64,000 nucleotides of DNA from a virus, in IMG/VR virus record IMGVR_UViG_3300025890_000018, one strand, 5' to 3'. Of the stretch, positions 11,366-46,240 are shown in pieces. The notes beneath the pieces were generated by a model. That model did not search any database. It saw nothing but the letters and a program-made list of their open reading frames with translations, and was not told the origin of the DNA. Every line of letters begins with the position of its first letter. The first letter of the stretch is position 1. The position numbers were made by a program, and so were the translations under genes.

Positions 11366-11394
11366 TTTACTTTCTTGTATAAATAGGGTATAAT
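11366..11394 (+). promoter_or_regulatory. Composite promoter: sigma70-type plus an embedded T4-late-type TATAAATA box
   Basis: -35 TTTACT (11366..11371), 17-nt spacer, TATAAT (11389..11394). TATAAATA lies at 11378..11385 inside the spacer. Confidence 0.5.
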
Positions 11395-11414: not shown

Positions 11415-12215
11415 ATGTTACGATTTCGAACATTTGATATGATAAAGGAAATGTCAATGGGTGCAGAATTAGAAATGGATATGGATTTTCTTCGGAGAGC
11501 TGAAAGAGTATCATCGTTTAATTTAATTGAAAAAGACTTTCAGTCAAATACATATCAAAAAGAAATTAGATACTTATACACAAAAAACTTTTTTCCTAAT
11601 TTTGATCAAAAGTTTTTTGTTAAGGCTCCTACTAAAGATGGACTTAACAAAGCTATCACTGCTTTAAAACAAGAAAGCCGAAGAAGCTTTGAAGCATTAC
11701 ATAATTTTCGTCCGGGTGGAACGGGGCCGGCTGAAGTACTTCTTTTCTTTTTAATTGATGGTGCTCAACTAGGTGGTGCCGGTTCTGCAGGAATGGATTT
11801 ATTTGTTAATCGAAAAGGTTATGAGATGAAATCTGTGCATGTATCTACTGATGGATTTATAAAAGATTTTAAGCTAGGTGGTACTGCTAACTTATCTGGA
11901 ATAATAAATGAAAGTATAGCTTTAAAAAGAAAAGCTGATCCTAGAGCATCAAACAAACCGGGTGAAATTAATAAGACACAACAAGACAAGATTGCTAGAA
12001 TGTTTCCAACACAATGGAAAAATATACAAAAGAAATTTCGAAAAGAAGCTGCAGATTATTTTGGAGACACAAATATAATTTTTACTCGTAGTAAATCAAA
12101 TAAAGCTCAAATGGGGAATGTTTTAGGAATAGGAACTGTTCCGGAACGGGCTATAGAAATTGATATGTTTACTAGTGGAACTATTAAACCTCTTATTAGA
12201 GTGAGCGATATGTAA
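11415..12215 (+). CDS. CTS-like N-terminus protein with a possible PD-(D/E)XK nuclease motif
   Basis: GGAG lies 6 nt upstream of ATG 11415. The N-terminus is MLRFRTFDMIKE. 'GPAEVLLFF...GMDLFVNRKGYEMKSV' has an E...D...E-x-K arrangement. Confidence 0.5.
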   Translation: MLRFRTFDMIKEMSMGAELEMDMDFLRRAERVSSFNLIEKDFQSNTYQKEIRYLYTKNFFPNFDQKFFVKAPTKDGLNKAITALKQESRRSFEALHNFRPGGTGPAEVLLFFLIDGAQLGGAGSAGMDLFVNRKGYEMKSVHVSTDGFIKDFKLGGTANLSGIINESIALKRKADPRASNKPGEINKTQQDKIARMFPTQWKNIQKKFRKEAADYFGDTNIIFTRSKSNKAQMGNVLGIGTVPERAIEIDMFTSGTIKPLIRVSDM

Positions 12216-13441
12216 TGAAGTTTGTTGAATATATAACTGAACAAAAGAATACTCATATGACTCATATAGAAGACAAGGTAGTCTACGGTGGAGTCAAAGG
12301 AACTAGAGACGCAATCATGGCATTGCGTTCTTTAAGAGATATGCTAGGAGGCGTACATGATGGAAATGTTAGTGTCAAATGGGATGGTGCTCCTGCTGTG
12401 TTTGCTGGGATCGACCCTAGTGATGGTAGATTCTTCGTGGCGAAAAAGGGGATCTTTAACAAATCTCCCAAAGTATACAAGAGTAATGCTGATATTGATG
12501 CTGATACTAGCGGCGATCTCAGTACAAAGCTTAAGCTCGCTTTACAGTATCTACCCGAGCTAGGAATCAAAGGAGTAGTCCAAGGTGATTTTTTGTATAG
12601 TAAAGCGGATCTTAAAACACAAAAAATCAAAAATAAATCGTATGTTACGTTCCACCCCAATACAATCTTATATGCAGTACCGGCTGGCACGGACATGGCC
12701 GGGGAAATTAAGGCAGCAAAGATTGGAATCGTGTGGCATACGAGCTACACAGGAAACTCATTCGAAGGAATGAAGCAAAGCTTTGGTGTAGATATATCTA
12801 AATTTAAAAAATCAAAGAATGTATGGTCACAAGATGCTATGCTTCGAGATTTAACTCGATATACTATGACACAGCAAGATACAGAAGAAGTAAATGAACA
12901 CCTTAGGAATGCAGGATTTATATTCAATAAGATTGCGGGTAATACACTACGACAACTACAAAATAATAAAATCCTTACACAACTAATTGAGCAACATACT
13001 AATTCATATGTAAGAGCTCAAGCAATGCCGCCTGATCCGGCCAAAAGAGTAGATGCTCTTATAAAATTTATTCAACAGAAGTATAAAAAAGAAATTGATA
13101 AAAGATCTACCGATCAAGGTAAAGATTCACAACGATTAAAACTTGGTGAGATACTAAATTTCTTCTCAAGTAAAAATAAAACAGCACTTAAAAATATCTT
13201 TGAATTACAAAGATCTATAATTCTAGCAAAACTAAAACTTATAAATATACTTAATCAGCTACAGTCTGTAAGGGCTTTCTTAAAAACTAAACGAGGGTTT
13301 AGAACTACGGGCCAAGAAGGATATGTAGCAATTGACAAACTTGGTAGTGATGCAGTGAAAATTGTGGACCGTATGGAGTTCTCATACGCAAACTTTTCAC
13401 CCAATATATTAAAAGGATGGGATACACCAGGAAGGAACTAA
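12215..13441 (+). CDS. CTS-like N-terminus protein with covalent nucleotidyltransferase (ligase-like) motifs
   Basis: The N-terminus is MKFVEYITEQ. 'VSVKWDGAPAVF' resembles motif I (K-x-D-G). 'QEGYVAID...AVKIVDR' resembles motifs IV and V. The spacing between motifs is unusually long. Confidence 0.5.
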   Translation: MKFVEYITEQKNTHMTHIEDKVVYGGVKGTRDAIMALRSLRDMLGGVHDGNVSVKWDGAPAVFAGIDPSDGRFFVAKKGIFNKSPKVYKSNADIDADTSGDLSTKLKLALQYLPELGIKGVVQGDFLYSKADLKTQKIKNKSYVTFHPNTILYAVPAGTDMAGEIKAAKIGIVWHTSYTGNSFEGMKQSFGVDISKFKKSKNVWSQDAMLRDLTRYTMTQQDTEEVNEHLRNAGFIFNKIAGNTLRQLQNNKILTQLIEQHTNSYVRAQAMPPDPAKRVDALIKFIQQKYKKEIDKRSTDQGKDSQRLKLGEILNFFSSKNKTALKNIFELQRSIILAKLKLINILNQLQSVRAFLKTKRGFRTTGQEGYVAIDKLGSDAVKIVDRMEFSYANFSPNILKGWDTPGRN

Positions 13442-13443
13442 CG

Positions 13444-13998
13444 ATGGCAGAAAAACTGCTGCGCTTTAAAGATTTATACACTGTAGAATATCGTCCTGGT
13501 GAGGATGAGCTTACTAATTATCGTGCATACAAACGTAAGAGACATATGTACGAAGCTACAAAAATGATATGTAAAGACTGTGGTGATGAACAAGGTAAGC
13601 CAACGACTGATTGTCCACACGATTGTAGTGGTGGCCCTCACTTTGCTCCACAAAACGACGATGGTAAATCTACAGTTGAAGCTCTGACCCTCCAACAACG
13701 TATGGCTAAATCCCGCCAGCTTAAACGAATGAAAGCCAAGATTAAAATTGGCCGTGACCGTGCTAAACGTAAAATGGCTGACACTAAAAAATTAAGAAGC
13801 AGAGCCCGTAAACAAGCTCGTACATTTATTCTTAAGAAACTTACTAAGGGTAAAGGTAAAAGCGAATTATCATTTGCACGTAGAGCAGAACTAGAAAAAC
13901 GTATGGCTGCTCCTGCTGTAAAGAAAAGAATAGATATGTTCGCTAAGCGTATGTTTAAAGATGTTCGTAAAAAAGAAGTTGAAAGAAAAAAGGGTTAA
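13444..13998 (+). CDS. Basic, Lys/Arg-rich protein with a Cys cluster
   Basis: MAEKLLRFKDLYTVE at the N-terminus. 'CKDCGDEQGKPTTDCPHDC' is a Cys cluster, and the C-terminal half is K/R-rich. ATG 13444 is preferred to 13417. Confidence 0.5.
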   Translation: MAEKLLRFKDLYTVEYRPGEDELTNYRAYKRKRHMYEATKMICKDCGDEQGKPTTDCPHDCSGGPHFAPQNDDGKSTVEALTLQQRMAKSRQLKRMKAKIKIGRDRAKRKMADTKKLRSRARKQARTFILKKLTKGKGKSELSFARRAELEKRMAAPAVKKRIDMFAKRMFKDVRKKEVERKKG

Positions 13999-15221
13999 TG
14001 AGTTATTCGTTTAAAACTTTTCTAGCTGAAGAAGAAAAGCGAGTTTATTTTACTTTCGGTAGAATGAATCCGCCTACTATTGGTCATGGTAAATTACTAG
14101 AAAAGCTAGCAACAATGGCCGGTAATAATCAATATCGAGTTTATCTGTCTCAATCACAAGATAGTAAAGATAATCCATTACAGTATAACGATAAGATAAA
14201 GATTGCACGAAAAATGTTTCCGCGTTATGCACGTCGAATCATGTTAAACAAAAAAATTAAAACAGTATTCGATGCTTTACAATCATTATATGATGAAGGT
14301 TTTGTTAATGTGGTTATGGTTGTAGGTTCTGATCGTGTAAATGAGTTTGATATTCTTATCAAGAAATATAATGGTAAGAAAGCTAAACACGGCTTGTATA
14401 ACTTTCGAAGAATAGATGTTGTTTCTGCAGGCCAAAGAGATCCAGATGCAAAGGGAGCTGAAGGTGCATCTGCAACAAAACAAAGAGATGCTGCAAGGGC
14501 AAATGACTTTACTACATTTAGCCAAGGATTGCCTAGAGTTGTTAATAACTTTGATGCTAAGAAGATATTCAATAGTGTCCGTAAAGGTATGGGACTCAAG
14601 GAACAAAAAGAATTCAAGAATCATATACAATTAGAGCCAGTCAATGAAACAAGAGAATCATATGTAAGTGGTGAGCTCTACAAAGTTGGTGATCAAGTAA
14701 TTATAAAGGATACCGAAGAGATAGCTGAAGTCAAAGTATGTGGTGCAAACTATGTTATTGTAGAAACAGCTAATGGCCAATACCGAAAATGGTTGGAGGC
14801 AATTGAACCTATGGAAGAAGGACTATGGGCAAATATCCGTGCACGTCGTGCAGCAGGCAAGCCAAAGAAAAAACCTGGGCAAAAGGGTTATCCTAAAACT
14901 CTTGATATTGAAAGTGCTGCTTATCATAAGGGTGTATCTAAATCTACATCTGATAAAAGGAAAGCACATTTTAATAAGAATGCTAAAAAGGCTGACAATG
15001 ATGCTTCTGCATATAAACCAGCACCTGGTGATAAGACAGCTAAAACAAAAACAAGTGTGCATACTAAAAGATTCAAACAAATGTTTGGTGAATCTGAAAT
15101 GCAAGCTATAGCAAAAAAGAAAATTGATCGTGAAAAAGAAATCGATAAAATTAAACACGATCGAATGTTAGACCGTGCTCGAACAAGAGATACCACAAAG
15201 AAAAATAAGGAAACAAAATGA
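13998..15221 (+). CDS. Cytidylyltransferase-fold (HxGH) nucleotidyltransferase with a long basic C-terminal extension
   Basis: The N-terminus is MSYSFKTFLAEEE. 'FGRMNPPTIGHGKLL' is an H-x-G-H motif and 'GASATKQRDAA' is ISST-x-x-R-like. The C-terminal roughly 200 aa are K-rich and include 'GLWANIRARRAAGKPKKK'. Confidence 0.65.
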   Translation: MSYSFKTFLAEEEKRVYFTFGRMNPPTIGHGKLLEKLATMAGNNQYRVYLSQSQDSKDNPLQYNDKIKIARKMFPRYARRIMLNKKIKTVFDALQSLYDEGFVNVVMVVGSDRVNEFDILIKKYNGKKAKHGLYNFRRIDVVSAGQRDPDAKGAEGASATKQRDAARANDFTTFSQGLPRVVNNFDAKKIFNSVRKGMGLKEQKEFKNHIQLEPVNETRESYVSGELYKVGDQVIIKDTEEIAEVKVCGANYVIVETANGQYRKWLEAIEPMEEGLWANIRARRAAGKPKKKPGQKGYPKTLDIESAAYHKGVSKSTSDKRKAHFNKNAKKADNDASAYKPAPGDKTAKTKTSVHTKRFKQMFGESEMQAIAKKKIDREKEIDKIKHDRMLDRARTRDTTKKNKETK

Positions 15222-15469
15222 TTAGATTTAGCCAATATCTCTCGGAAGAAGAAAAGAAAGGTTTAGCAGCTAAGGCTGAAAAATCAGGTATGCCGATTGG
15301 TATACTACGTAAAGTCTATAATCGTGGTATGGCAGCATGGAAAACTGGTCATCGGCCAGGGACAACACCACAACAATGGGCTATGGCTCGAGTTAATTCA
15401 TTTACAACTAAATCCTCAGGCACTTGGGGAAAGGCAGACAAAGATCTGGCAGCAAAGGTAAGAGGATAA
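15218..15469 (+). CDS. Small conserved-motif protein with a CTS-like N-terminus
   Basis: The N-terminus is MIRFSQYLSEEE. 'LRKVYNRGMAAWKTGHRPGTTPQQWAMARVNSF' resembles a motif I recall from small viral proteins of unknown function. Confidence 0.55.
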   Translation: MIRFSQYLSEEEKKGLAAKAEKSGMPIGILRKVYNRGMAAWKTGHRPGTTPQQWAMARVNSFTTKSSGTWGKADKDLAAKVRG

Positions 15470-15470
15470 A

Positions 15471-16088
15471 ATGAAGACGTTCCATCAAATCCGAGAAAAA
15501 TTAGGAATGGCCACAGCAGGCGAGCATGAAGATGCAGCGCATGCACATAGAACTGCTTCAAAGCAACCTAAACAAGATTTAAGAGCGGTAAAAGCTCATG
15601 AAAAAGCAGCTGAACACCATGATAATGCCGCTAAGCACCTTAGAAACGGTAATTCATATGCTGCTCAAAATGCACATATCAATGCTAAAAATGAAGCTGA
15701 TAAAGCTAAAGATCACGGCAATGTTCACTCTAGTAGAGCACATGCTGATACACGTGCTATTGGCGAAGGTAAAGCTAATTTGGCGGAGCTTTCACCTGAT
15801 CTATTAACACGATATGCAAAGAAAGCAATACCTCGCCAATTTAAAGCGCAAGACCGGGCCCGTGATTATGGAATGCGCGGTACTGCAAAAGGCGATAAGC
15901 TACAGCACACAGCCGATAAGCGTAAAAAAGGTATTGACAGTGTACGCAAACGGTCAAACCCTAATGACAAGGGCCAATCTAAGACTGGTAGAGCATCAAG
16001 ACCTCATGGTGGAATGCGCCCAGGTAAGGGAAGTCCCTATCAGCAGAAATCTGCTGGTGGATTTAACAGCAAATATTTAGATCAGTAA
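15471..16088 (+). CDS. Basic low-complexity protein with a CTS-like N-terminus
   Basis: The N-terminus is MKTFHQIREK. The protein is rich in K, A and H. Confidence 0.55.
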   Translation: MKTFHQIREKLGMATAGEHEDAAHAHRTASKQPKQDLRAVKAHEKAAEHHDNAAKHLRNGNSYAAQNAHINAKNEADKAKDHGNVHSSRAHADTRAIGEGKANLAELSPDLLTRYAKKAIPRQFKAQDRARDYGMRGTAKGDKLQHTADKRKKGIDSVRKRSNPNDKGQSKTGRASRPHGGMRPGKGSPYQQKSAGGFNSKYLDQ

Positions 16089-16097
16089 GAGGGTAAA

Positions 16098-17039
16098 ATG
16101 AAAACGTTCGATGAAATAAGAGAAGGTTATGCATCTATGGCTCAACAACGAGCTGTATGGGCTACTCGTAAAGATGGCGGTAAAGGTCATCCGGATAATA
16201 AAAGAAAAAGAAAAAAAGAAGATGTGGATGAAGTCAAGTCTGCTGACAAGAAACCTGAAAAGTATGTTGCATCTGACGGTAAAACAAAAATCCGTATGGT
16301 TCCAGTTGTCAGAGAACAAGATGAAGTCAATGAATTAGACACCTCTACTTTAGTTTCTTATAGAAAAAAAGCTAATAAGCAAAGATATAGCAACGATATC
16401 TCAAAAAGAGGTAAAAGAACTGATGGTGTCGATAGAGCTGATAAAAAGTTAAGAAAACGGAATATTGATAAGTTTGGTAAACACTCTCCAAAGGGTGTTG
16501 ATAAAATGGGTAATCCTAAAGAAGATTCCTCTGATGCGGTAAAAGCATTCCTTGCCAAAGGTGGTAAGATTAAAAAGCTTCCACCAGCAAAAGCTCAAGG
16601 TTACCATGGTAAAGATGATCCGGGTAAAGACATGCATGGTGTAATGGACAAGCCTGATACCAAAGCTATGGGTACTCGTAAAAAAGTTAAGTCCATGGAA
16701 GCTAATCAGGTTGATGAAATCTCTCAAGATACTAAAAAGAGATACATTAAAAAAGCAGTTGGTGATATAGATAATCGCTCCTTTGCACAAGGATTAAGAG
16801 ATAAAAATCCAACCTATACAAGTGCTGATAGCAAAAACAATAGGAAGATTAAAAATCGTCGTGCAGGTATTAATAGAGCGTTAGAAGCTAAAGAAACAGA
16901 TCCTCCATTTGATGATGCTAAAAAAATATCGACTACACCTAGTAAAGATCAGTTCGGTAATATCATTAAGAACCGTGCAAAGCATCTTGCAAGGCAAGCC
17001 GCCAAGAAAGCTGGTGGCGATATGGGAGATAAGAAATGA
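16098..17039 (+). CDS. Basic Lys-rich protein with a CTS-like N-terminus
   Basis: The N-terminus is MKTFDEIREG. Lysine-rich throughout. Confidence 0.55.
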   Translation: MKTFDEIREGYASMAQQRAVWATRKDGGKGHPDNKRKRKKEDVDEVKSADKKPEKYVASDGKTKIRMVPVVREQDEVNELDTSTLVSYRKKANKQRYSNDISKRGKRTDGVDRADKKLRKRNIDKFGKHSPKGVDKMGNPKEDSSDAVKAFLAKGGKIKKLPPAKAQGYHGKDDPGKDMHGVMDKPDTKAMGTRKKVKSMEANQVDEISQDTKKRYIKKAVGDIDNRSFAQGLRDKNPTYTSADSKNNRKIKNRRAGINRALEAKETDPPFDDAKKISTTPSKDQFGNIIKNRAKHLARQAAKKAGGDMGDKK

Positions 17040-18064
17040 AATCGTTTAAATCTTTTTACGAAGATCTAACATTTAAAGTGGAGGTTGAAGGACTTCCGGC
17101 AATGTGGATGTCTGGTAATTCGCCAGGTCAAGTAAAGAACCATCTTCGTAAATTGGTTAAGCAACCATCAATGATTAAGTCTGTAAAACGGCAGACTAAA
17201 TTTGATGTAAAGAAAATGTACCGCGATAAAGCTCAGGGTAAAGAAGTTGACGAAATGACTCAACAGAGTAAAACACATCCTAATCTCAAGATTGCTGTAG
17301 GTAAATCTGCTCAATCTGCAAAAGACACAAAAGCTCGGGCAGATAAAAGAAAAGCAAATAAGCAGGGTACATCTTTAGCAGCTGGTACCGCATGTGAATC
17401 TACTGTTAAGGATAATCGTCCGGATCATGAAATAATGCAAGGATCACAAGGTGATGCAAGAAGAAAGCATGATGCTGTACATGGTCACGGTTCTTATCAT
17501 AAACTTCCTGCTCACCAAAGAGAGAAATTACATAGAAAAGAAATAGATCAACGTTTTTCTGATAGAGGGAGAAAACCTCCAAAGTATACTGTTAAACATA
17601 CCGGTAACAAGGTTGGTCATGTAGGAAGTTTCGAAATTCATCATACACCATTACAAAAAGTTCGTAATCATCTCAGGACACCTACGAGAACAGAAGCTAC
17701 ATCCGGTGAAGTTGATTATGGAACTGATAAGTCAGTTAAGATAATGAAGAAAGTTACACCTAACGAAGCACAAGAGGGTAAAGGTCTATGGGCAAACATT
17801 CATGCTAAGCGTAAACGTGGTGAGCGCATGCGTAAAAAAGGCGAGAAAGGTGCACCAACGCCAGCCGCTATTAAAAGTGCACAAAAAGAAGATGTAACAG
17901 AAAAACTTACAATTGGCAAGATTCGTAAAGCAGCATATAAAACTGCAAAGGTTCTTGGTGATGTTAATGCTGTTAAAAAAGGTAAAGTAGCTAGACGAGT
18001 AAAAAATCGAGTTGTCGGTAAGATGCTCGGTAAAGCAGTTAGCAAATTAGGATTGTTCAGGTAA
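17036..18064 (+). CDS. Basic Lys-rich protein with a CTS-like N-terminus
   Basis: The N-terminus is MKSFKSFYEDL. It contains 'GLWANIHAKRKRGERMRKKGEKG', also found in 13998..15221. ATGA overlap with the upstream gene. Confidence 0.55.
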   Translation: MKSFKSFYEDLTFKVEVEGLPAMWMSGNSPGQVKNHLRKLVKQPSMIKSVKRQTKFDVKKMYRDKAQGKEVDEMTQQSKTHPNLKIAVGKSAQSAKDTKARADKRKANKQGTSLAAGTACESTVKDNRPDHEIMQGSQGDARRKHDAVHGHGSYHKLPAHQREKLHRKEIDQRFSDRGRKPPKYTVKHTGNKVGHVGSFEIHHTPLQKVRNHLRTPTRTEATSGEVDYGTDKSVKIMKKVTPNEAQEGKGLWANIHAKRKRGERMRKKGEKGAPTPAAIKSAQKEDVTEKLTIGKIRKAAYKTAKVLGDVNAVKKGKVARRVKNRVVGKMLGKAVSKLGLFR

Positions 18065-18351
18065 TGGAAAGATTCAAAACATTTATAGAAGCTCGTGGCG
18101 AAGATTCAAAGGGTCATAAAAGATCTACTGCATCAGGCGCAGGTCTTACTCAAAAAGGTGTAGATGCTTATAATCGAAAAACTGGTGGTAATCTAAAAAC
18201 TGCGGTGACTGGTAAAGTTAAGCGCGGTAGTAAAGCTGCAGGTAGAAGGAAATCATTTTGTGCTCGCATGGGTGGCATGCCGGGACCAATGAAAGATGAG
18301 AAAGGTAGACCTACACGTAAGGCAATGTCTTTACGTCGATGGAAATGTTAG
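18064..18351 (+). CDS. Small basic conserved-motif protein with a CTS-like N-terminus
   Basis: The N-terminus is MERFKTFIEAR. 'RRKSFCARMGG...PTRKAMSLRRWKC' resembles a motif I recall from small marine-phage proteins. Confidence 0.55.
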   Translation: MERFKTFIEARGEDSKGHKRSTASGAGLTQKGVDAYNRKTGGNLKTAVTGKVKRGSKAAGRRKSFCARMGGMPGPMKDEKGRPTRKAMSLRRWKC

Positions 18352-19294: not shown

Positions 19295-19582
19295 ATGAAA
19301 GAAGATCATATGGAGTCCCACTCAAGGTTAGATAGGATCGAGTTAAAACTCGACAAGCTTACGGAAGCGATGGTTTTAATGGCACGGACTGACGAAAAAG
19401 TAACTGCATTAAAAGATGATCATGATAATATGTATGAACGTATTAATCGATTATCTATGAAATTAGATGATATTGAAAAGAAGGTTGACGATAATCACCG
19501 CACGGTGTGCCTTATAAATAAACTAGTATATGCTGCTCTAATCGCAGCGGTTGGAGCGTATGTGGCTCAATTTTTAACTTAG
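19295..19582 (+). CDS. Coiled-coil protein with a C-terminal transmembrane anchor
   Basis: 'LINKLVYAALIAAVGAYVAQFL' forms a C-terminal hydrophobic helix. The start could be ATG 19295 or 19310. Confidence 0.5.
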   Translation: MKEDHMESHSRLDRIELKLDKLTEAMVLMARTDEKVTALKDDHDNMYERINRLSMKLDDIEKKVDDNHRTVCLINKLVYAALIAAVGAYVAQFLT

Positions 19583-19592
19583 GAGAAGACAA

Positions 19593-20696
19593 ATGGATTA
19601 TAATCCTTTTAGGAGTGGGGCCACTCAAAAGGTCCAAGAAAAAGCAGATGATGATACAGTACGTATGATGAAAGACAACCCAAAGATGATGAAAAAAGGT
19701 GGACCTGGTGGCTTAAAAGGTCTGAATAAAGATGCACAAAAAAATGTTAAAAAGGCAATGAAGGATGATGTCAATGAATCAAAGTTTGTGATTCCAGAAG
19801 AAGTACCAGCTACAGAGCGTACGGCATTCCATGGTGCTGCAGCAGCTGCTCATAAAGCAGGTAAGTCTTCATTTAGTTTTGCTGGTAAGAAACATCCAGT
19901 AACTATGAAAAAAGATACAGCCAATGCAATTGCCGACCAAAAAGAAGGCTACTATAAAGATATGGAAATCAAAAAACAAGATAAAGCAATGGGTGCCAAG
20001 CCAGTTCCTTCAAAGAAAAAGAAAGAAGCAAAGGGCGGTGGTAAAGAAGGTGATGTAGAAATGAATCCAAAAATGGAAAAAGATTCTAAATCAACTCCGG
20101 TTGAAGCAAAAGAGTCAAAAATCCGAAGTGCACTAAGGTCAGTACTTTCAGAAAAGTCTAGAGATGATCATTACAAATCTTCAACTGATCCTGAAATGAT
20201 GAAGGATAAGATTAAAGGTAAAGGCGCCGAAGACATGATGAAAGGTGCTGATGACGAAATTGCAAAGGGACCTGATGCGCATCTTGACGAGCCAGCAATG
20301 GTTAATAAAGATGCAGCTAAGATGACTTCAAATGTACCAAAGGGCAAAGCCCGTAGTAATGATAACATGAAGGGTGATACTAAAATCAAACCCGGTGGTA
20401 CACCAATGAAAGATCCTGCTGCAATGAAGGCAGAATCATTTGGTTCTCAAGTATCAAATATGGCATCAGCTTATGCTTCAATGCAACCAATTGAAATTGA
20501 TGAGTTGGACGAGTCTATGTTAGGCCATAAAGGTGCAAGTGCTGTTAATGGTGGTAAATCAAAAGATCCTCGTTTCAAATCATCTGCTTCTCACATTGAC
20601 TATCATCATAGACGAAGTGATGGTCATATGAAATCAGGCGGTGATGAAGATCAGCACCGGTATCAAGTTGCTAAAAAACTTGGATATAAAGTATAG
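19593..20696 (+). CDS. Lys/Met/Asp-rich low-complexity protein
   Basis: A 367-aa ORF with AGGAGAAG upstream. It has repeated MMK/KKG-type low complexity and no CTS-like N-terminus. Confidence 0.55.
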   Translation: MDYNPFRSGATQKVQEKADDDTVRMMKDNPKMMKKGGPGGLKGLNKDAQKNVKKAMKDDVNESKFVIPEEVPATERTAFHGAAAAAHKAGKSSFSFAGKKHPVTMKKDTANAIADQKEGYYKDMEIKKQDKAMGAKPVPSKKKKEAKGGGKEGDVEMNPKMEKDSKSTPVEAKESKIRSALRSVLSEKSRDDHYKSSTDPEMMKDKIKGKGAEDMMKGADDEIAKGPDAHLDEPAMVNKDAAKMTSNVPKGKARSNDNMKGDTKIKPGGTPMKDPAAMKAESFGSQVSNMASAYASMQPIEIDELDESMLGHKGASAVNGGKSKDPRFKSSASHIDYHHRRSDGHMKSGGDEDQHRYQVAKKLGYKV

Positions 20697-21359: not shown

Positions 21360-21946
21360 TGGGAATAGTAAAACGAGCGGCTGATTTAGCATACACATTT
21401 AGATTCATTCGAATGCTCGTATTGGATTGGAAGGAATGGGATGCTTACAAACTTGGCCTCATTGATGAAGAAGGCAAGCGAAACCGAAAAACAAAAATTC
21501 AATCAGACGAACAAAAGTCAGCCTACACACCGTTCATCAGACTCTGTGCAAACATTAAACGTTTGGTATCGAAGCTTCCGGGTGGCGGTAGTAAGCTTGG
21601 TTCTTTTGCTTCTGCTCTTTATCTTATAAAAGAAAAATACAATCTTAAAGATCGCGATCTCGAAAAAATCATAGAAAAATGTGGTGCAGACGTGCTTGAC
21701 ATTATCAATGAAGGGAATGAATGGTTCCTTCTTGATGACGGTTCAATCGCGCCCGGTGTATATAAAATTCGAGAAAATAAATTATTAACTCGCAACTGCG
21801 GTGAAATGGTATGGGCTAAAGATCAAGTACGAATAAGAGAAGAATGTCATTCTATTGGTGACGTATTTGGTATACCGATTTATGAGGCAATCCATATAAA
21901 TACTAATCAAAGCATTTATATAACCACAAACGAGATTTATAAATGA
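21359..21946 (+). CDS. Hypothetical protein
   Basis: A 195-aa ORF with ATGA overlap to the first fibre gene, so probably structural or late. Confidence 0.5.
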   Translation: MGIVKRAADLAYTFRFIRMLVLDWKEWDAYKLGLIDEEGKRNRKTKIQSDEQKSAYTPFIRLCANIKRLVSKLPGGGSKLGSFASALYLIKEKYNLKDRDLEKIIEKCGADVLDIINEGNEWFLLDDGSIAPGVYKIRENKLLTRNCGEMVWAKDQVRIREECHSIGDVFGIPIYEAIHINTNQSIYITTNEIYK

Positions 21947-32723: not shown

Positions 32724-34289
32724 ATGGCAGAACAATCAGGACAAGACGGCGTTAAACTATTTGGTTTTGAAATCAAGCGCGCCAAAAAGAAAGATGAGAT
32801 GAAATTACCATCAGTCGTTCCTCCGCGGGATGATGAAGGTGGTAGTTATGCAACTGCATCTGGTTCGCACTATGGTCAGTACCTGAATCTAGGTGATGAC
32901 GATTCAAAAGACAACTATCAATTAATTATGAAATATCGCGGTAATGCAATGCATCCTGAAGTTGATGCTGCTATTGAAGATATCGTAAACGAGTCAATTA
33001 CTGGTAGCCAGTTAGAACAAACTTTAGAATTGAATATGGAGGAAGTAAAAGCTCCTGATTCTATTAAAAAGAAAATTACAGAAGAATTCGATAACATATA
33101 TGGAATGCTTAACTTTAAGGAGTTAGGTCATGATATTTTCCGTAGGTGGTATGTAGATGGAAGAATCTATCATCATCTTGTTTTGAATGAAGCAAATCCT
33201 AAAGAAGGTATTCAAGAAATACGACCTATTGATGCTGCTAAAATGCGCAAGGTCAAAAAGATTAAGAAGAAAAAAGATCCAGTAACTGGTGCAGATATTA
33301 TTGAGAATACCGAAGAGTTTTATATCTTCCAAGAAAAGCCAGGGTCATCTACATCCGGTGTAAAGATGACAAATGATGCAGTAAGTTATGTTACATCTGG
33401 TTTGCTTAGTGAAGATCGTAAAAAGATTATTTCATTTTTACATAAAGCACTAAAGCCTATCAATCAATTACGAATGATGGAAGACTCATTAGTTATCTAT
33501 CGCCTCGCACGTGCACCCGAGCGAAGAATCTTTTATGTAGATGTTGGTAGCTTACCACGTGGTAAAGCTGAACAATACATGAAAGATATTATGACTAAGT
33601 ATCGTAATAAGCTTGTGTATGATGCAGCAACTGGTCAAATTAAAGATGATCGTAAGCATATGTCAATGCTAGAAGACTTCTGGTTGCCAAGACGTGAAGG
33701 CGGTAAAGGTACAGAGATATCTACATTGCCCGGCGGAGAAAACCTTGGACAAATTGATGATGTAATTTTCTTTCAAAAGAAAGTTTACCGGTCATTGAAT
33801 GTACCACTTAGTCGACTAGAACAAGAGAATCAATTTAATCTTGGTAGATCGACTGAGGTAAATAGAGATGAATTAAAATTCCAAAAGTTTATCGATAGAT
33901 TACGTATGAGGTTTGCTCATCTATTCTATGGTATTCTAAAAACTCAACTTATTCTGAAAGGTATCATTACCGAAGAAGATTGGGAAGAGTGGAAAAATGA
34001 TATTACCGTTGACTATGTAAGGGATAACCACTTTACAGAATTACGGGATATGGAAGTATTGAGAGAAAGAGTACAAACACTCGATCAAATCAATAACTAT
34101 GCTGGAGAGTATTTCTCTAAAGAATGGATTCAAAAGAATGTACTTATGCTTTCTGATGAAGATGTAGAGAAGATGAATAAAGAAATCAATGGTGAACAAG
34201 AAGAAAAGCCTGAGGAAGAACCTCAGGATCAAGAAGCACCATCACAAAAATTTGAATTGAAACCTGTACAAGGAGATGACAGTGAGTGA
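32724..34289 (+). CDS. gp20: Portal protein, T4 gp20-like
   Basis: 'VIYRLARAPERRIFYVDVGSLPRGKAEQYM' is the hallmark gp20 block. 521 aa. Confidence 0.9.
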   Translation: MAEQSGQDGVKLFGFEIKRAKKKDEMKLPSVVPPRDDEGGSYATASGSHYGQYLNLGDDDSKDNYQLIMKYRGNAMHPEVDAAIEDIVNESITGSQLEQTLELNMEEVKAPDSIKKKITEEFDNIYGMLNFKELGHDIFRRWYVDGRIYHHLVLNEANPKEGIQEIRPIDAAKMRKVKKIKKKKDPVTGADIIENTEEFYIFQEKPGSSTSGVKMTNDAVSYVTSGLLSEDRKKIISFLHKALKPINQLRMMEDSLVIYRLARAPERRIFYVDVGSLPRGKAEQYMKDIMTKYRNKLVYDAATGQIKDDRKHMSMLEDFWLPRREGGKGTEISTLPGGENLGQIDDVIFFQKKVYRSLNVPLSRLEQENQFNLGRSTEVNRDELKFQKFIDRLRMRFAHLFYGILKTQLILKGIITEEDWEEWKNDITVDYVRDNHFTELRDMEVLRERVQTLDQINNYAGEYFSKEWIQKNVLMLSDEDVEKMNKEINGEQEEKPEEEPQDQEAPSQKFELKPVQGDDSE

Positions 34290-34635
34290 AGTAGAAGCGC
34301 AAGAAGCTGAGAATGCAGTTTCAGAACCTAATGAGTATATTAAAGATTTAATTGCTAATGCATTAGAACAAGATTATAACGGTGCCAATAAGATCTTTGG
34401 TGATGTCATGACAGTTAGGCAAAATGATTTATTAGATCAAGAAAAAATTAAATTGGCTGATCAACTTTTCAACGGAGCAGAAGAAGATGACGATGCTGAT
34501 GAAGATGACGAGTTGGGGGATGAGGATGACGATCAGCTCGAACTTGAGCTTGACTCAGAAGATGGCGATGAAGAGGAAGATGATGAAGAAGAATCTGATG
34601 ATGAAGCCGCCGAAGATGATCAAGAAGAAGTATAA
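34276..34635 (+). CDS. Prohead core-position protein with an extremely acidic C-terminal tail
   Basis: It occupies the T4 gp67/gp68 position between portal and protease. The last roughly 55 aa are almost entirely D/E ('EEDDDADEDDELGDEDDDQLELELDSEDGDEEEDDEEESDDE'). Confidence 0.55.
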   Translation: MTVSEVEAQEAENAVSEPNEYIKDLIANALEQDYNGANKIFGDVMTVRQNDLLDQEKIKLADQLFNGAEEDDDADEDDELGDEDDDQLELELDSEDGDEEEDDEEESDDEAAEDDQEEV

Positions 34636-34661: not shown

Positions 34662-34669
34662 TATAAATA
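34662..34669 (+). promoter_or_regulatory. T4-type late promoter box
   Basis: TATAAATA about 19 nt upstream of ATG 34688. Confidence 0.45.
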
Positions 34670-34687: not shown

Positions 34688-34903
34688 ATGTTAACATTTA
34701 CTCAACTAAGAGAAAAGATGGAGAAGGGCATGCCGCCTGGTGAACATGTTTTCGATAAAAAAGTTGATGGTAAAGAACTTATGATCCATAAAGAAAAAGG
34801 CAAATTTTGTACGTACATAGATAGGGAAAAACTAGATACGTATCCTACTTTAGGTATGGCAAAGAAAGCCGGAACTGAATTTATAAAGGCAGCAAATAAA
34901 TGA
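34688..34903 (+). CDS. Small prohead core-position protein with a CTS-like N-terminus
   Basis: The N-terminus is MLTFTQLREK. ATGA overlap with the protease gene. It occupies the gp68 position. Confidence 0.55.
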   Translation: MLTFTQLREKMEKGMPPGEHVFDKKVDGKELMIHKEKGKFCTYIDREKLDTYPTLGMAKKAGTEFIKAANK

Positions 34904-35550
34904 AACTGATTGCAGAATATACAGATCAAAGTTTAGAGATTCTCACTGAAGAAAAAGAAGGTGGTGGGAAGAGCTATTCTATTGAAGGCGTGTTCATGCA
35001 AGCAGAACAAAAGAATCGTAACGGTCGAATATATCCAAAGCCTATCATGGAAAAAGCACTCGGTAAATATAATACTGAGCAAGTTTCAAAAGGTAGAGCA
35101 GTCGGTGAATTGAACCACCCTGAAGGACCGACCGTTAATTTAGACAAAGTTTCTCACAAGATCGAATCCCTTGATTGGAAGGGTAATGATGTTGTGGGCA
35201 AGGCGACTATTTTGGAAACTCCTATGGGACAAATTGTAAAAGGTTTGCTCGATGGTGGTGTCAGATTAGGCGTTTCAACTCGTGGTATGGGAAGCTTGCA
35301 GAACAATGGTAACGCAATGGTCGTCAAAGACGACTTTATTCTTAATGCGGTAGACATCGTTCAAGATCCATCTGCACCTAGCGCATTTGTTAATGGAGTT
35401 ATGGAAGGTGTTGAATGGGTTTGGAATAACGGAATCATTGAACCACAAGCAATTGAAATAATGGAGACTGAAATTAAGAAAGCTCCTCGTGCGGATCTCT
35501 ATGAGACACAAGTTCGTGAGTTTAAGAATTTCCTCTCGTTGCTCAAATAA
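34900..35550 (+). CDS. gp21: Prohead core protease, T4 gp21-like
   Basis: 'NRNGRIYPKPIMEKAL...GELNHPEGPTVNLDKVSH' is the gp21-family signature as I recall it. It lies between the core proteins and the scaffold gene. Confidence 0.8.
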   Translation: MKLIAEYTDQSLEILTEEKEGGGKSYSIEGVFMQAEQKNRNGRIYPKPIMEKALGKYNTEQVSKGRAVGELNHPEGPTVNLDKVSHKIESLDWKGNDVVGKATILETPMGQIVKGLLDGGVRLGVSTRGMGSLQNNGNAMVVKDDFILNAVDIVQDPSAPSAFVNGVMEGVEWVWNNGIIEPQAIEIMETEIKKAPRADLYETQVREFKNFLSLLK

Positions 35551-35568: not shown

Positions 35569-36624
35569 ATGACTGAAGATCAAAATCAAGATCAAGAGAT
35601 TGACCTCCATGATGACAACGAAGTCGTGGAAGCAGCAACTCACGATCCGAAAAATGCTGAGGCTCAGTCTGTAGCATCTGTTGATAAAGCAGGTGAAGCT
35701 ACAGGTAAAGCGCCAACGCGTAAAGGTGATCAAACAAAACAAGATCCAATGATCAAAACTAAAGCAGGACTAATTACTGCTATGGTTGGAAAAATGCAAA
35801 AAATGGGCAAGACTGATTTACAGGCAATGTACCATAAAGACGACTTTGATGTAGAGAATTTTGAAGGTGAAGCAATTGCTGAATCTCCAGAGCTCGATTA
35901 TCAAGTTGATTTTTCTGAGGATCTAAACGCACTCGTCGAATCAGAGGCAACTCTGTCAGATGAATTCAAGGCAAAAGCAGAGACAATCTTTGAAGCAGCT
36001 ATCAAGTCTAAGCTATCTGAAGAGATCGATCGCCTTGAAGAGAAGTACAACGAAGAGTTGGCAGAAGAAGTAGAATCTACTAAAGCTGACCTAGTTGAAA
36101 AAGTCGACAATTATCTTAACTACGTAGTTGAGAGCTGGATGGAAGAGAATAAGCTTGCAGTCCAGTCAGGCCTAAGAACAGAAATTGCTGAGAACTTCAT
36201 GTCAAGTCTGAAAGATTTGTTTGAAGAGTCTTACATTGAAGTTCCGGAAGCTAAGGTTGACTTAGTTGACGAAATGGCAGATCAAGTATCAGAACTCGAA
36301 GAGTCACTAAATGATACAACTGCTAAAAACATTGAGATGATGGGAGTACTCGAAGAGCTAATGCGGGAAAAAATTATCCGTGAAGCATCTGAAGGTCTTG
36401 CAGAAACTCAAGTTGAAAAACTAAAGTCACTGGTAAGTGATATCGATTTTGATTCAGAAGAAACTTTCGCTGAGAAAGTAGAGACTGTTAAAGAATCATA
36501 CTTTACCAAAAAAGTTACTGAAACAGCTTCTATCGAAGAAGATGTGTCGGATGACGATGGTGTTCAAGTAGCATCGGGTTCTATGGCTCAGTATCTAACA
36601 GCAATCCAAAAAACAAATAAATAA
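35569..36624 (+). CDS. gp22: Prohead scaffolding core protein, T4 gp22-like
   Basis: Acidic, helical, E/K/L-rich 351-aa protein directly upstream of the major capsid gene. Confidence 0.7.
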   Translation: MTEDQNQDQEIDLHDDNEVVEAATHDPKNAEAQSVASVDKAGEATGKAPTRKGDQTKQDPMIKTKAGLITAMVGKMQKMGKTDLQAMYHKDDFDVENFEGEAIAESPELDYQVDFSEDLNALVESEATLSDEFKAKAETIFEAAIKSKLSEEIDRLEEKYNEELAEEVESTKADLVEKVDNYLNYVVESWMEENKLAVQSGLRTEIAENFMSSLKDLFEESYIEVPEAKVDLVDEMADQVSELEESLNDTTAKNIEMMGVLEELMREKIIREASEGLAETQVEKLKSLVSDIDFDSEETFAEKVETVKESYFTKKVTETASIEEDVSDDDGVQVASGSMAQYLTAIQKTNK

Positions 36625-36642: not shown

Positions 36643-37980
36643 ATGCAAACCGTATCATACGATCGACTGATCGAAAAATGGGCACCGGTACTGAACGAAG
36701 AGTCTGCCGGCACTATTAAAGATCATCACCGGAAAGCAGTTACTGCTGCTATTCTAGAAAACCAAGAGCGTGCATTCGCAGAAGAAGCGGCCCAAGGCCA
36801 ATTCATGACAGAAGCAGCTCCAACAAACAACACAGGCAATGCTGCTAACTGGAATCCAGTTCTTATTGCCCTTGTCCGCCGTGCAATGCCAAACCTTATG
36901 GCATATGACATGTGTGGAGTCCAGCCAATGTCCGGACCAACAGGCTTGATCTTCGCAATGAAGTCAACCTTTGAAAAGACAAAAGCAGGTGTATCAGACG
37001 GTGCAGAAGCACTCTTCAACGAAGCACCAATTGGCTTCTCCGGAGATTCTGCAACAACTGCAAACGGTTCATCCTCTGGTTTGGCTGATTCTTCATCTTC
37101 TGGTGTAGGATCAATTGATGATGAGCGTACTGATCCTATATCAGCTAATGATCCATACTCAACAGCCGAAGCTGAAGCTTTGGGTGACGGTGTTGGTGAG
37201 AGCTTTGCTGAAATGGGTTTCACCATCGAAAAAGCAACTGTGACTGCCAAGTCACGGGCACTGAAAGCAGAATATAGCTTGGAACTTGCTCAGGATCTTA
37301 AAGCCATTCATGGCCTCGATGCTGAAACAGAACTTGCTAACATTCTGTCAACTGAGATCATGGCTGAAATTAACCGTGAAGTTATTCGCACAGTTAACTC
37401 ACAAGCTAAGACAGGTGCACTAACTGCTAACACAGCAATTAACGGTATCTTCAACCTCTCAACAGATGCAGACGGTCGTTGGTCAGTGGAGAAATTCAAA
37501 GGCCTGATCGTACAAATCGAGCGTGAAGCTAACACAATTGCTAAAGAAACACGTCGGGGTAAAGGTAACTTTATGATCTGTTCATCAGATGTTGCTTCTG
37601 CTCTCTCAGCTTCTGGCATGCTTGACTATACTCCAGCAATGTCAACCAACTTGCAAGTAGATGATACTGGCAATACTTTTGCTGGTGTTATGAATGGTCG
37701 CACACGGGTCTACATTGATCCATATGCAACTCAGGACTATGTCAATGTTGGTTATAAGGGAACTAACCCTTATGATGCAGGTCTCTTCTATTGCCCATAC
37801 GTACCACTAACAATGGTCCGTGCAGTAGGTGAGCAAAGCTTCCAGCCAAAAATTGGATTTAAGACACGTTACGGTATGGTATCAAACCCATTCGTAGGTG
37901 CTGCTCCAGCTAATGGCCTAGCTACTGCTAAGACTAACCAATACTACCGGATCTTCCGTGTAGACAATATTCTTGCATAA
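36643..37980 (+). CDS. gp23: Major capsid protein, T4 gp23-like
   Basis: 'LIEKWAPVLNEE' and 'VRRAMPNLMAYDMCGVQPMSGPTGLIFAMK' are hallmark gp23 blocks. Confidence 0.9.
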   Translation: MQTVSYDRLIEKWAPVLNEESAGTIKDHHRKAVTAAILENQERAFAEEAAQGQFMTEAAPTNNTGNAANWNPVLIALVRRAMPNLMAYDMCGVQPMSGPTGLIFAMKSTFEKTKAGVSDGAEALFNEAPIGFSGDSATTANGSSSGLADSSSSGVGSIDDERTDPISANDPYSTAEAEALGDGVGESFAEMGFTIEKATVTAKSRALKAEYSLELAQDLKAIHGLDAETELANILSTEIMAEINREVIRTVNSQAKTGALTANTAINGIFNLSTDADGRWSVEKFKGLIVQIEREANTIAKETRRGKGNFMICSSDVASALSASGMLDYTPAMSTNLQVDDTGNTFAGVMNGRTRVYIDPYATQDYVNVGYKGTNPYDAGLFYCPYVPLTMVRAVGEQSFQPKIGFKTRYGMVSNPFVGAAPANGLATAKTNQYYRIFRVDNILA

Positions 37981-45064: not shown

Positions 45065-46240
45065 ATGAGTAGATCAAGAGATATCTCACAAATACTTGGT
45101 AAGACAGATGCTACCAATGTAAATAATCACCCTCTACTAGACACTTCTGCTGCAGTGGATTCTGCAGAAGTCGTAACATTAATTACAGCACACAGTAGCA
45201 ATTTAGATTCTGCAGATATACAAATAATTTCAGCACCATTAACTAATAGAAACCTTATTATAAATGGTGCGATGAACGTGGCGCAACGCGCAACCTCAGT
45301 GGCTGACATGGGTGGGTCTGGTGGATATATCACTGTGGACAGGTTTAGAATAGACACAAACGGTGCTTCCGCTGGAAGATTTACCATGACACAAACAGCG
45401 GATGGCCCTAGTGGCTTTGCTAATTGCACAAAACTTGATGTCACAACTGCCGATACATCTATAGCTGCTGGCGAAAGACTTTTTCTTCAACAGAACATAG
45501 AAGGTCAAAACTTACAGAGGGTTGCAAAAGGCACATCTGATGCACAGAGTTTAACTTTAAGTTTTTATGTAAAGGGAAATGCTGCTGCCACTTATGTAGC
45601 AGGGTTCTACGATAATGATAACAACAGGCAAGTTAGTAAACAATTTGCAGTAACAACATCATGGAATAGAATAACACTAACCTTTCCCCCAGATACAACA
45701 GGGGCGTTAGATGACGACAATGCTGCAAGTTTGCAATTAAGATTTTATCTTCATGCGGGTTCTAATTACACAAGCGGAACTATATCTGAGACATGGATTG
45801 CGGCTGATGGAACTAAGAGTGTAGGTAGCGGAACTACCTCTATTTTTGATAGCACAGACCGTACATTTTTTATCACAGGCATTCAGCTTGAAGTTGGCGA
45901 ACAGGCCACGCCGTTTGAACACCGCAGCTATGCCGATGAGTTGATACAGTGTCAGAGGTATTATCAATCAATAGACTATTATTGGGCCACAGGTACTTCA
46001 TCATTAAACGTACATTATTACACGCCTTTTCCTTTTCCAATAACGATGAGAGCGACCCCAACAATGACAGCAAGTGCTTATCAGCAGAATGATGGAAACG
46101 CTACGACAAGATACAATACAACAGTAGTTAATGGGTGGATTATGCACACAGCAAGCAAGACAAGTTGTTTTATGCGTGGTAACCACGGCAACATTTACAA
46201 CATTATGAGTGGTCGTGGAAAATTTGAAGCGGAGTTATAA
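45065..46240 (+). CDS. Fibre-like structural protein (paralog 5) with a distinct C-terminal domain
   Basis: The N-terminus MSRSRDISQILGKTDATNVNN is shared with paralogs 1 and 2. The remainder is unrelated to the propeller or LamG modules. Confidence 0.55.
   Translation: MSRSRDISQILGKTDATNVNNHPLLDTSAAVDSAEVVTLITAHSSNLDSADIQIISAPLTNRNLIINGAMNVAQRATSVADMGGSGGYITVDRFRIDTNGASAGRFTMTQTADGPSGFANCTKLDVTTADTSIAAGERLFLQQNIEGQNLQRVAKGTSDAQSLTLSFYVKGNAAATYVAGFYDNDNNRQVSKQFAVTTSWNRITLTFPPDTTGALDDDNAASLQLRFYLHAGSNYTSGTISETWIAADGTKSVGSGTTSIFDSTDRTFFITGIQLEVGEQATPFEHRSYADELIQCQRYYQSIDYYWATGTSSLNVHYYTPFPFPITMRATPTMTASAYQQNDGNATTRYNTTVVNGWIMHTASKTSCFMRGNHGNIYNIMSGRGKFEAEL

Follow-up and report, generated by a model that had tools for sequence, protein, structure and literature searches.

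Capsid-targeting-like leaders on a predicted head-cargo operon of an uncultured marine T4-like phage

The 64-kb stretch of DNA analysed here, hereafter the window, derives from an uncultured marine T4-like phage (IMG/VR virus record IMGVR_UViG_3300025890_000018) and carries, between positions 11415 and 18351 of its plus strand, nine open reading frames (ORFs) so tightly packed that their stop and start codons overlap or abut. The predicted products, with pI values of 9.7-11.2, begin with short leaders of the type found on the internal proteins (IPs) of phage T4. This resemblance is genuine and lies far beyond chance, and we consider it probable that the leaders direct the encapsidation of the proteins that carry them. 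The sequence data point to capsid targeting and processing of the T4 type in a remote marine lineage of the T4 superfamily, where this system would serve a conserved operon of enzyme-like and basic cargo proteins. To our knowledge, the T4 capsid-targeting sequence (CTS) has so far been seen mainly as a trait of the T-even coliphages, whose small internal proteins are polymorphic; Mullaney and Black reportedly described it in 1996 for IPI, IPII and IPIII. The occurrence of this address tag here, its critical positions unchanged, suggests its conservation in distant marine T4-like phages (Kyanoviridae-like; related to HTVC008M, Melnitz and the cyanomyoviruses), in which it marks a whole conserved operon that includes enzyme-like proteins of 400 residues. 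The mechanism is known; its extent, its cargo and the explanation that it offers for virion 'cytidylyltransferases' appear to be undescribed in the literature searched.

Leaders of the nine-gene cluster

The T4 leaders, read directly from the genome sequence (NC_000866), are MKTFKEFTST...TITE|A for IPI and MKTYQEFIAE|A for IPII and IPIII, and this is also the type of the cluster leaders MKTFHQIRE, MKTFDEIRE, MKSFKSFYE, MERFKTFIE and MIRFSQYLSE. The layout consists of an aromatic residue at position 4, an aromatic or hydrophobic residue at position 7, Ile or Leu at position 8 and Glu at position 9-10. Residues 4 and 7 of IPIII mainly set targeting and residues 8 and 10 processing (Black laboratory work, reviewed in PMC9026906; the CTS of the T4 IPs is also reviewed in PMC3012670). 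As in T4, the leader comprises approximately ten N-terminal residues and is the only part common to basic proteins with mutually unrelated bodies, and a gp21 protease, a gp22 scaffold and gp23 are encoded in the same genome. The bodies are, however, not homologous to those of the T4 IPs. BLASTP comparison of T4 ipI, ipII, ipIII, alt, gp67, gp68, gp61.1 and gp2 against the cluster yielded nothing significant, the best match of T4 to the window being that between ipII and a further ORF at position 34688 (e-value: 0.034 in a 16-sequence database). In contrast to the three small IPs of T4, nine clustered genes and one additional gene are involved (approximately 260 kDa at one copy each), among them genes for 400 amino acid (aa) enzyme-like proteins, and rather than occupying scattered polymorphic loci they form one conserved operon beside the replication/structural boundary. 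In many of the leaders the Glu also stands one residue earlier, at position 9, and in some P3 is occupied by Phe or Met.

The cluster opens with ORF1 (11415..12215), whose 266-aa product (pI 9.7) has no known domain and carries the leader MLRFRTFDMIKE, with predicted cleavage after I-K-E at residue 12. ORF2 (12215..13441) encodes a 408-aa DUF6267 protein with an invariant K55-W-D-G58 motif; its N-terminus, MKFVEYITEQ, contains the leader MKFVEYITE, predicted to be cut after I-T-E at residue 9. The 184-aa product of ORF3 (13444..13998; Lys/Arg 29%; pI 10.3) has an atypical leader, MAEKLLRFKDLYTVE, in which the targeting half F-x-x-L is present and T-V-E stands in place of [L/I]-x-E, and the N-termini of its relatives read MLRFKDMMTVEY, MAKPLSFKDFMVVDY and MLDFKDFIVADY. 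A 407-aa cytidylyltransferase-like protein (HxGH nucleotidyltransferase) is encoded by ORF4 (13998..15221); its N-terminus, MSYSFKTFLAEEE, holds the leader MSYSFKTFLAE with predicted cleavage after L-A-E at residue 11, and its basic C-terminal tail includes GLWANIRARR. In ORF5 (15218..15469; 83 aa; DUF5824; N-terminus MIRFSQYLSEEE) the leader MIRFSQYLSE has a spacing identical to that of T4 IPIII (F4, Y7, L8, E10). ORF6 (15471..16088; 205 aa; pI 10.2) and ORF7 (16098..17039; 313 aa; Lys 18%; pI 10.0), neither with a recognized domain, begin MKTFHQIREK and MKTFDEIREG, respectively, and cleavage is predicted after I-R-E at residue 9 in both. The 342-aa product of ORF8 (17036..18064; pI 10.4; N-terminus MKSFKSFYED), in which a GLWANIHAKR module is found at the C-terminus, has a leader ending in F-x-E (F-Y-E), not [L/I]-x-E, and F-x-E also ends that of ORF9 (18064..18351; 95 aa; DUF6321; pI 11.2; N-terminus MERFKTFIEA). 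The starts are preceded by Shine-Dalgarno sequences of the ordinary type, and a T4-type late-promoter-like motif, TATAAATA, is located on the plus strand at 11378..11385, 37 nt before the ATG of ORF1, where it is likely the promoter of the nine-gene operon.

The first-pass annotation quoted the N-termini of these nine ORFs and of the 34688 ORF as they are found here, but overstated their uniformity. The pattern M-x-x-F-x-x-[FILY]-x-(x)-E, which all were said to fit, is literally present in five of the nine (ORFs 5-9) and in the 34688 ORF, with Phe at position 4 and Phe, Tyr, Ile or Leu at position 7; ORFs 1-4 retain the same spacing in shifted form and match only with the aromatic residue displaced by -1 to +4 or with the Glu further on. 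Of all 582 ATG codons in the six frames of the window that are followed by 50 or more codons, seven show the literal pattern, namely five in the cluster, the 34688 ORF and a gene at 57166. Counted per gene, it is found in 5/9 cluster members versus 2/85 others (Fisher p = 4.5e-5), while a looser pattern (aromatic-x-x-hydrophobic-(0-3 residues)-E near the N-terminus) is found in 9/9 versus 4/85 (p = 6.7e-10), the four outside matches including the 34688 ORF and gp23. The possibility that the motif is no commoner in the cluster than elsewhere is answered by a clear enrichment. A hydrophobic-x-E site ending at residues 8-15 is present in eight of the nine cluster proteins and in 13 of the 85 others (p = 1.4e-5). 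The canonical [L/I]-x-E form is present in 6/9 and in the 34688 ORF, the exceptions being ORF8 and ORF9 (F-x-E) and ORF3 (T-V-E).

When all starts of the T4 genome were scanned as a positive control, the regular expression (regex) recovered ipII and ipIII and its core form recovered ipI, with few other real genes (61.1, gp2 and 24.2) in the background. T4 gene 61.1 (NC_000866, 18966-19130, minus strand) encodes a 54-aa hypothetical protein that starts MKTFKEFIKE, near-identical to the CTS of IPI and IPIII, a likeness that makes gp61.1 a possible, so far unrecognised, fourth CTS protein of that phage. Partial leader matches are also seen in T4 gp2 (MAIFQIINE) and 57B (MMEFKDFSTG). In the window, the gene at 57166-57771, outside of the cluster, encodes a methyltransferase-like protein (Methyltransf_11/25) whose N-terminus, MATFLEIAGE, fits the literal pattern; this could be a chance match or a further packaged enzyme.

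Leaders among related phages

The phage of the window is a T4-core, Kyanoviridae-like virus. No megablast match to the 7-kb cluster, and no match at the DNA level, was found among GenBank phages, and relatives were therefore reachable only via their proteins. By this measure the closest relative is the uncultured 'Phage C48C1' (Kyanoviridae; 67% identity in the major capsid protein and 61% in ORF2), which with a genome of 156 kb is also the closest complete relative, followed by Methylophilales phage Melnitz, Stenotrophomonas phage DLP_6, Pelagibacter phage HTVC008M and cyanomyoviruses. IMG/VR contains near-identical contigs and many others with 68-80% identity, indicating that the phage is part of an abundant environmental clade.

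Eighty IMG/VR loci around DUF6267 homologs were fetched, and 82 loci containing this anchor were analysed by scoring a loose leader regex per gene index relative to the DUF6267 gene. The leader is found in 89% of genes at position 0, 85% at +2 and 45% at -1, falls from 58% to 26% between +3 and +7, and reaches only 10% at +1 because the leader of the ORF3 family, which occupies this position, is atypical. Overall, 44% of the ORFs at positions -2 to +9 carry the leader versus 5% elsewhere (Fisher p = 8e-65), foreground and background both being somewhat inflated since the regex also guided the choice of start codon. In the flanking conserved families the leader is found in 0/47, 0/33, 0/29, 0/26 and 0/19 members, while 73 of 85 DUF6267 homologs carry it. 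The slot upstream of DUF6267 is filled by several protein families (6, 9, 12, 33, 43 and 44), all of them leader-bearing, including the relatives of ORF1 in family 9 (e.g. MKKFRTYLKE and MMKFKSYITE), and at least eight leader-bearing body families can be distinguished in the relatives. The proposal that the leader would be conserved among homologs and the bodies variable was thus borne out across the 82 loci. The cluster had furthermore been described as an oversized battery, which holds in comparison with the three IPs of T4 but is nothing exceptional within the clade, where the ten longest related loci each show approximately 4-8 ORFs flagged by a leader regex, as read by eye from the listing.

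Homologs in C48C1, Melnitz and DLP_6 likewise open with the leader, for example MMLDFKNFITE, MLSFKQFVSE, MITFKKYLEE, MKKFTEIREA, MQGFKTFLSE, MKKFSEIIEA and MMKFTQFLAE. A set of 267 distinct leaders collected among the relatives gives the consensus M-x-x-F(93%)-K-x-[FY](78%)-[IL](62%)-x-E(77%), of which the regex fixes a part and leaves free the preference for Phe, the aromatic residue at +3, Ile/Leu at +4 and Glu at +6. The aromatic residue stands at position 4 in 155 of these leaders, and P3 is Ile or Leu in 70%. For a scan at genome scale the complete 156-kb C48C1 genome was assembled, in which the strict leader has 12 matches: seven in the homologous cluster, one in a GTG-initiated ORF upstream of gp21, and four others (gp23, UvsW, a 122-aa ORF and a 57-aa minus-strand ORF). 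The GTG-initiated ORF, located at 14434-14631 of its record, begins (M)RTFKELREA.

The cytidylyltransferase of the relatives retains its leader even where a GTG or TTG start overlaps the preceding stop codon. In C48C1, the GenBank start of this protein (MNPPT) appears too far downstream, because a GTG located 22 codons upstream gives the conserved leader (M)IKNFSQYLLEEE (locus L001, 9619-11028). A 424-aa ORF of the same phage, likewise with a GTG start, begins (M)KDFFELREA (L001, 12988-14262) and is represented in GenBank by smaller pieces. In HTVC008M, Melnitz and DLP_6, DUF5824 forms the C-terminal domain of the cytidylyltransferase; as a separate gene it meets the leader regex in 28 of 31 cases, the other three being leader-like, and a leader of its own is expected if each separately translated polypeptide needs its own address tag. 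The loose regex also matched a T4-GC198-like gene (20997 in the window) in 9/22 relatives. This candidate was treated as a false positive because the matched LTE lies in the conserved body and the S-CREM2 homolog, gp159, is not in the virion proteome. The product of 19593-20696, a Lys-rich protein of 367 aa, clusters with the cargo via basic modules and has no leader (MDYNPFRSGATQ), and its counterparts in the relatives have variable and mostly leaderless N-termini.

The head module and cyanophage virion proteomes

The T4-type head genes lie downstream of the cluster on the plus strand. Portal protein gp20 (32724-34289; Portal_T4 profile) is followed by a weak candidate for a gp67-like acidic prohead core protein (34276..34635; PF17634; e-value: 3.9e-5, below the gathering score) and by the ORF at 34688..34903, which encodes a basic 71-aa protein (pI 9.3) with the leader MLTFTQLRE (N-terminus MLTFTQLREK; L-R-E site). 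This ORF stands directly upstream of the prohead core serine protease gp21 (34900..35550), in the interval after the gp67-like gene where T4 has the core protein gp68, and its product may be an internal protein or a core protein belonging to the head module. The presence of a gp21 homolog, as put forward in the first-pass annotation, was confirmed by a Peptidase_S77 match (e-value: 7e-40). The gp22-type scaffolding core protein (35569..36624; T4_CASP; e-value: 1.5e-67) contains 14 [L/I]-x-E sites versus 6.2 expected from its composition, a 2.3-fold enrichment that fits complete degradation of the scaffold by the prohead protease, as in T4. The major capsid protein gp23 (36643..37980; Gp23 profile) has a predicted maturation site, QFMTE57|AAPT, which aligns with SFLTE65|AEIG of T4 and has Met at P3, suggesting that the hydrophobic-x-E specificity of the protease is retained and that Met at P3 is tolerated. 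The F-x-E sites of ORF8 and ORF9 are plausible because the phage's own gp23 site deviates at P3 in this manner. The N-terminus of gp23 (36643-36681) is itself CTS-like, reading MQTVSYDRLIEKW in the window (Y6, L9, I10, E11) and MNNSFDQLIEKW in C48C1 (record position 16399), and the gp23 propeptide may dock to the scaffold as the cargo leaders would.

Among 80 IMG/VR loci fetched around gp21 homologs, an ORF is present just upstream of gp21 in 66, and in approximately 50 of these 66 relatives it encodes 61-72 aa and starts MK[TS]Fx[QE][IL]RE. The conserved leader residues are retained through synonymous codons (four for Thr, six for Arg, six for Leu/Ile and two for Glu), a count that rests on a filter which pre-selected the motif. 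A second copy of the late-promoter-like octamer lies at 34662..34669, 26 nt before the 34688 ORF, and further copies on the plus strand at 19513, 21895, 25560, 30290, 38102 and 42565 precede the structural genes starting at 19593, 21943, 25599, 30360, 38115 and 42590, respectively, by 13-80 nt. The total of 13 in the window versus 8.8 expected is not significant, so that it is the placement that matters; the phage seems to have retained late promoters of the T4 type.

Homologs of the cluster proteins have been detected in purified virions of cyanophages. According to PMC10665884, liquid chromatography-mass spectrometry of CsCl-purified S-CREM2 virions detected the cytidylyltransferase gp154 and its neighbours gp155, gp156 and gp160, and such proteins are described there as frequent in cyanophage virions. 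The gp154 protein is a homolog of ORF4 (36.5% identity; e-value: 5e-38) and starts MKNFSSFLTE. In the virion proteome of S-SZBM1 (PMC9146016) the cytidylyltransferase S-SZBM1_140 and its neighbours _139 and _136 were detected, and the N-terminus of S-SZBM1_140, MRFRQFIIE, likewise represents a leader. The adjoining DUF6267 homolog, S-SZBM1_141, is leaderless and starts MAKNTHLEHLED, which corresponds to the predicted mature start of ORF2; it is not mentioned in the text of PMC9146016, the table of detected proteins included. This contrast between a leader-bearing protein that was detected and a leaderless neighbour that goes unmentioned fits leader-dependent packaging. The DUF6267 homolog S-PM2d138 also begins at the predicted mature end without a leader, and these two leaderless homologs may be taken as an indirect hint, from sequence comparison, of cleavage at this point.

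The 'Cytidylyltransferase / NMNAT-like' proteins that recur in cyanomyovirus virions (S-CREM2, S-SZBM1 and S-SCSM1) are homologous to ORF4, and the leaders found in S-CREM2 and S-SZBM1 offer a mechanistic explanation for their recurrence in virion proteomes, which has been queried as contamination. In the parts of PMC10665884 and PMC9146016 available here no link is drawn between virion presence and a targeting leader, and the word 'internal' is absent from the S-CREM2 paper. In the literature searched, 'capsid targeting sequence' and cyanophage occur together only in the T4 review, although cyanophage papers in subscription journals may already note such leaders.

Proposed packaging, alternatives and cargo

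We suggest that the nine genes form a late-transcribed operon of head cargo proteins, each of which would be made with a propeptide of approximately 9-15 residues equivalent to the CTS of the T4 IPs. The aromatic residue, usually Phe 4, and the aromatic or hydrophobic residue three positions further on would dock to a scaffolding core of the gp22/gp67 type during prohead assembly. The gp21-type serine protease would then cut after hydrophobic-x-Glu, so that the mature, strongly basic protein is freed inside the shell and stays with the DNA. The cargo would comprise the DUF6267 protein, the cytidylyltransferase-like nucleotidyltransferase, the DUF5824 and DUF6321 modules and several Lys-rich proteins, to which the small basic protein encoded beside gp21, bearing the same leader, may be added. 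By analogy with the T4 IPs and Alt, at least part of this cargo is expected to exit the head together with the DNA and to act ahead of phage gene expression. Scaffold docking, cleavage, retention, ejection and action in the cell are all steps that we infer. The T4 Alt protein, an ADP-ribosyltransferase (ART), shows that a large enzyme can enter the head, be trimmed there by gp21 and reach the host with the injected DNA, and ORF2 and ORF4 would be comparable cargo. The N-terminus of Alt, MELITELFDE, is not of the MKTF type, and no ART domain is found in the cluster. The giant phages phiKZ and SPN3US reportedly fill their heads with many different proteins, which a prohead protease like gp21 cleaves behind a short Glu-ending motif; according to the abstracts of PMC5694885 and PMC7411985, the bolus of ejection proteins of SPN3US exceeds 40 MDa.

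The core inference of the first-pass annotation, that CTS-type leaders mark proteins loaded into the prohead, is supported by the T4 layout, the head module, the gp21-adjacent ORF, the 82 loci, the C48C1 scan, the late promoter and the two virion proteomes, and packaging via a CTS-like leader is as such well supported by indirect evidence. Several observations weigh against it. Three of the nine leaders are without a canonical [L/I]-x-E site (T-V-E in ORF3, F-Y-E in ORF8 and F-I-E in ORF9), four of the nine fit only with an offset, and the counts among relatives carry the inflation described above. Internal [LI]xE sites in the cargo are not depleted (12 observed versus 10.4 expected), so that this test lends no support. 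The S-CREM2 authors (PMC10665884) themselves allow for contamination of CsCl preparations, and S-SZBM1_139 and S-CREM2 gp156 were detected in virions without an obvious leader, suggesting that packaging in those cyanophages need not depend on it.

Coincidental resemblance, or simple paralogy of the nine genes, is hardly credible as an account of the leaders. Short motifs rich in Lys, Phe and Glu are common in AT-rich phage genomes, and the regex does match unrelated genes (57166 in the window, UvsW in C48C1, gp2 and 24.2 in T4), but chance is effectively refuted by the statistics in the window and across the 82 loci, and in the C48C1 scan the motif is limited, stray matches apart, to the cluster and the ORF next to gp21. 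Paralogy is countered by bodies that belong to different Pfam and PHROG families. We also lend little credence to the view that the common N-terminus is a cassette for recombination and gene shuffling in a hyperplastic region, or a translation-initiation element that supplies favourable first codons, with no role in targeting. The cluster is indeed mosaic, with DUF5824, DUF6321 and GLWANI modules fused or split differently among phages and most of the cluster joined in one network by single-linkage clustering, conserved leader-coding DNA could in principle promote the recombination of cargo genes, and the starts are translationally coupled, including GTG and TTG codons that overlap the previous stop. 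The conservation is, however, at the amino acid level (F4, aromatic 7, I/L 8 and E10), with freedom elsewhere and synonymous changes, and the conserved positions are exactly those which are functional in the T4 CTS. The ordinary Shine-Dalgarno sequences before the starts, the recurrence of the leader on a lone small ORF that adjoins gp21 at a distance from the cluster, and the detection of homologs in virions also speak against this view; a role in recombination would in any case be compatible with targeting rather than an alternative to it.

Somewhat less improbable, though still unlikely, is that the leader is a propeptide or interaction tag for a destination other than the DNA-filled head interior. 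It may, for example, recruit the proteins to a transient assembly factor, after which gp21 would degrade them along with the scaffold before they could reach the next cell, or it may attach them to the neck or tail. Core proteins of the gp22 and gp67 type share such a fate, being directed to the core and later destroyed; the 34688 ORF occupies the position of the T4 core protein gp68, and the number of internal [LI]xE sites is as composition predicts, which leaves the bodies with no obvious protection against the protease. Set against this are peptides of the cytidylyltransferase body in mature CsCl-purified virions of two cyanophages, which indicate that at least that cargo survives maturation, and the folded enzyme-like domains and strongly basic proteins of the cluster, which resemble the T4 IPs and Alt and not an acidic scaffold. 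Encapsidation directed by the leader accordingly remains the reading that we prefer, and it would make it possible to predict by a simple test of sequence which proteins of uncultured phages are encapsidated and possibly also injected.

The bodies of the cargo are mutually unrelated, with matches to DUF6267 (ORF2), CTP_transf_like (ORF4), DUF5824 (ORF5) and DUF6321 (ORF9) in Pfam/PHROG, and no Pfam family above the curated cutoff for ORFs 1, 3, 6, 7 and 8. Three enzyme-like motifs had been proposed in the first-pass annotation. Among the enzyme-like bodies only the cytidylyltransferase-like fold of ORF4 was confirmed by profile comparison, with PF01467 (e-value: 1.3e-4; 22.6 bits against a cutoff of 21) and with the 'cytidyltransferase' families phrog_3041 and phrog_395 (e-values: 1.5e-76 and 2.4e-64, respectively), and its N-terminal (T/H)xGH motif is visible in FGRMNPPTIGHGKL. 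The ligase-like reading of ORF2, by contrast, found no structural support. Its assignment as a ligase or capping-enzyme nucleotidyltransferase, made from the KxDG (KWDG) motif, was dropped as unsupported because no match in sequence or fold was obtained: Pfam gives only DUF6267, a phmmer search of the PDB returned nothing, and PDB sequence searches with ORF1, ORF2 and ORF4 gave noise only. An AF2 model of ORF2 built with 33 close homologs has a mean pLDDT of 65.5, with values below 50 around the KWDG motif, and Foldseek comparison of this model with the PDB gave no match at E<=1e-3, an exclusion that is not strong given the poor model near the motif. Homologs of DUF6267 number thousands in metagenomes, and no papers on the family were found in the literature search.

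Ejection of the cargo followed by early action in the cell is, by analogy with T4, an even prospect in our estimation. Cleavage, ejection and counter-defence are likewise extended to this cargo by analogy, and DNA condensation is a role to which its basic composition, by the same kind of comparison, may point. More speculatively, and with considerable doubt, the clade can be envisaged to deliver a conserved, pre-made enzymatic toolkit along with its DNA, consisting of the DUF6267 KxDG protein and the HxGH nucleotidyltransferase with DUF5824, which would act before phage expression. Such a toolkit may, for example, restore or modify a nucleotide cofactor or RNA/DNA ends, pre-empting host abortive-infection or depletion defences. 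If this were true, a one-line sequence rule based on the leader would reveal, directly from metagenomes, which proteins uncultured ocean viruses inject. The cargo proteins described here are concrete candidates for an early role in host takeover or counter-defence in viruses that rank among the most abundant of the ocean.

When the bodies were grouped by single-linkage clustering, ORFs 3-9 and the 19593 ORF merged into one network of 336 members because basic modules are shared. One such module consists of GLWANI[R/H]A[R/K]R followed by a stretch rich in Lys, Arg, Gly and Pro and is found in ORF4 (14820-14849) and ORF8 (17783-17812). Small proteins of HTVC008M (L004, 9224; MAKKGLWYYMNKRRKEG) and of locus L072 (17244; MKEQSQGLWANIWAKRRRGE) carry it N-terminally, and it matches PHROGs 16028, 11180 and 22379, whose function is unknown.

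The window as a whole has a G+C content of 35-40% and is coding almost entirely on the plus strand. Directly upstream of the cluster, the ORF at 10766-11320 matches the Na+/Pi-cotransporter family (PF02690; e-value: 4e-15) over only approximately 110 residues and represents a truncated transporter-like auxiliary gene, which is kept in the relatives (family 15). Four large fibre-like or structural paralogs are furthermore encoded at 21943-23697, 23724-25517, 40803-42548 and 45065-46240. They have in common the N-terminus MS[KSR].R[DN][IV]A[RK][IF]LG[RK]TE..N.NN, which is probably an attachment domain joined to variable distal parts.

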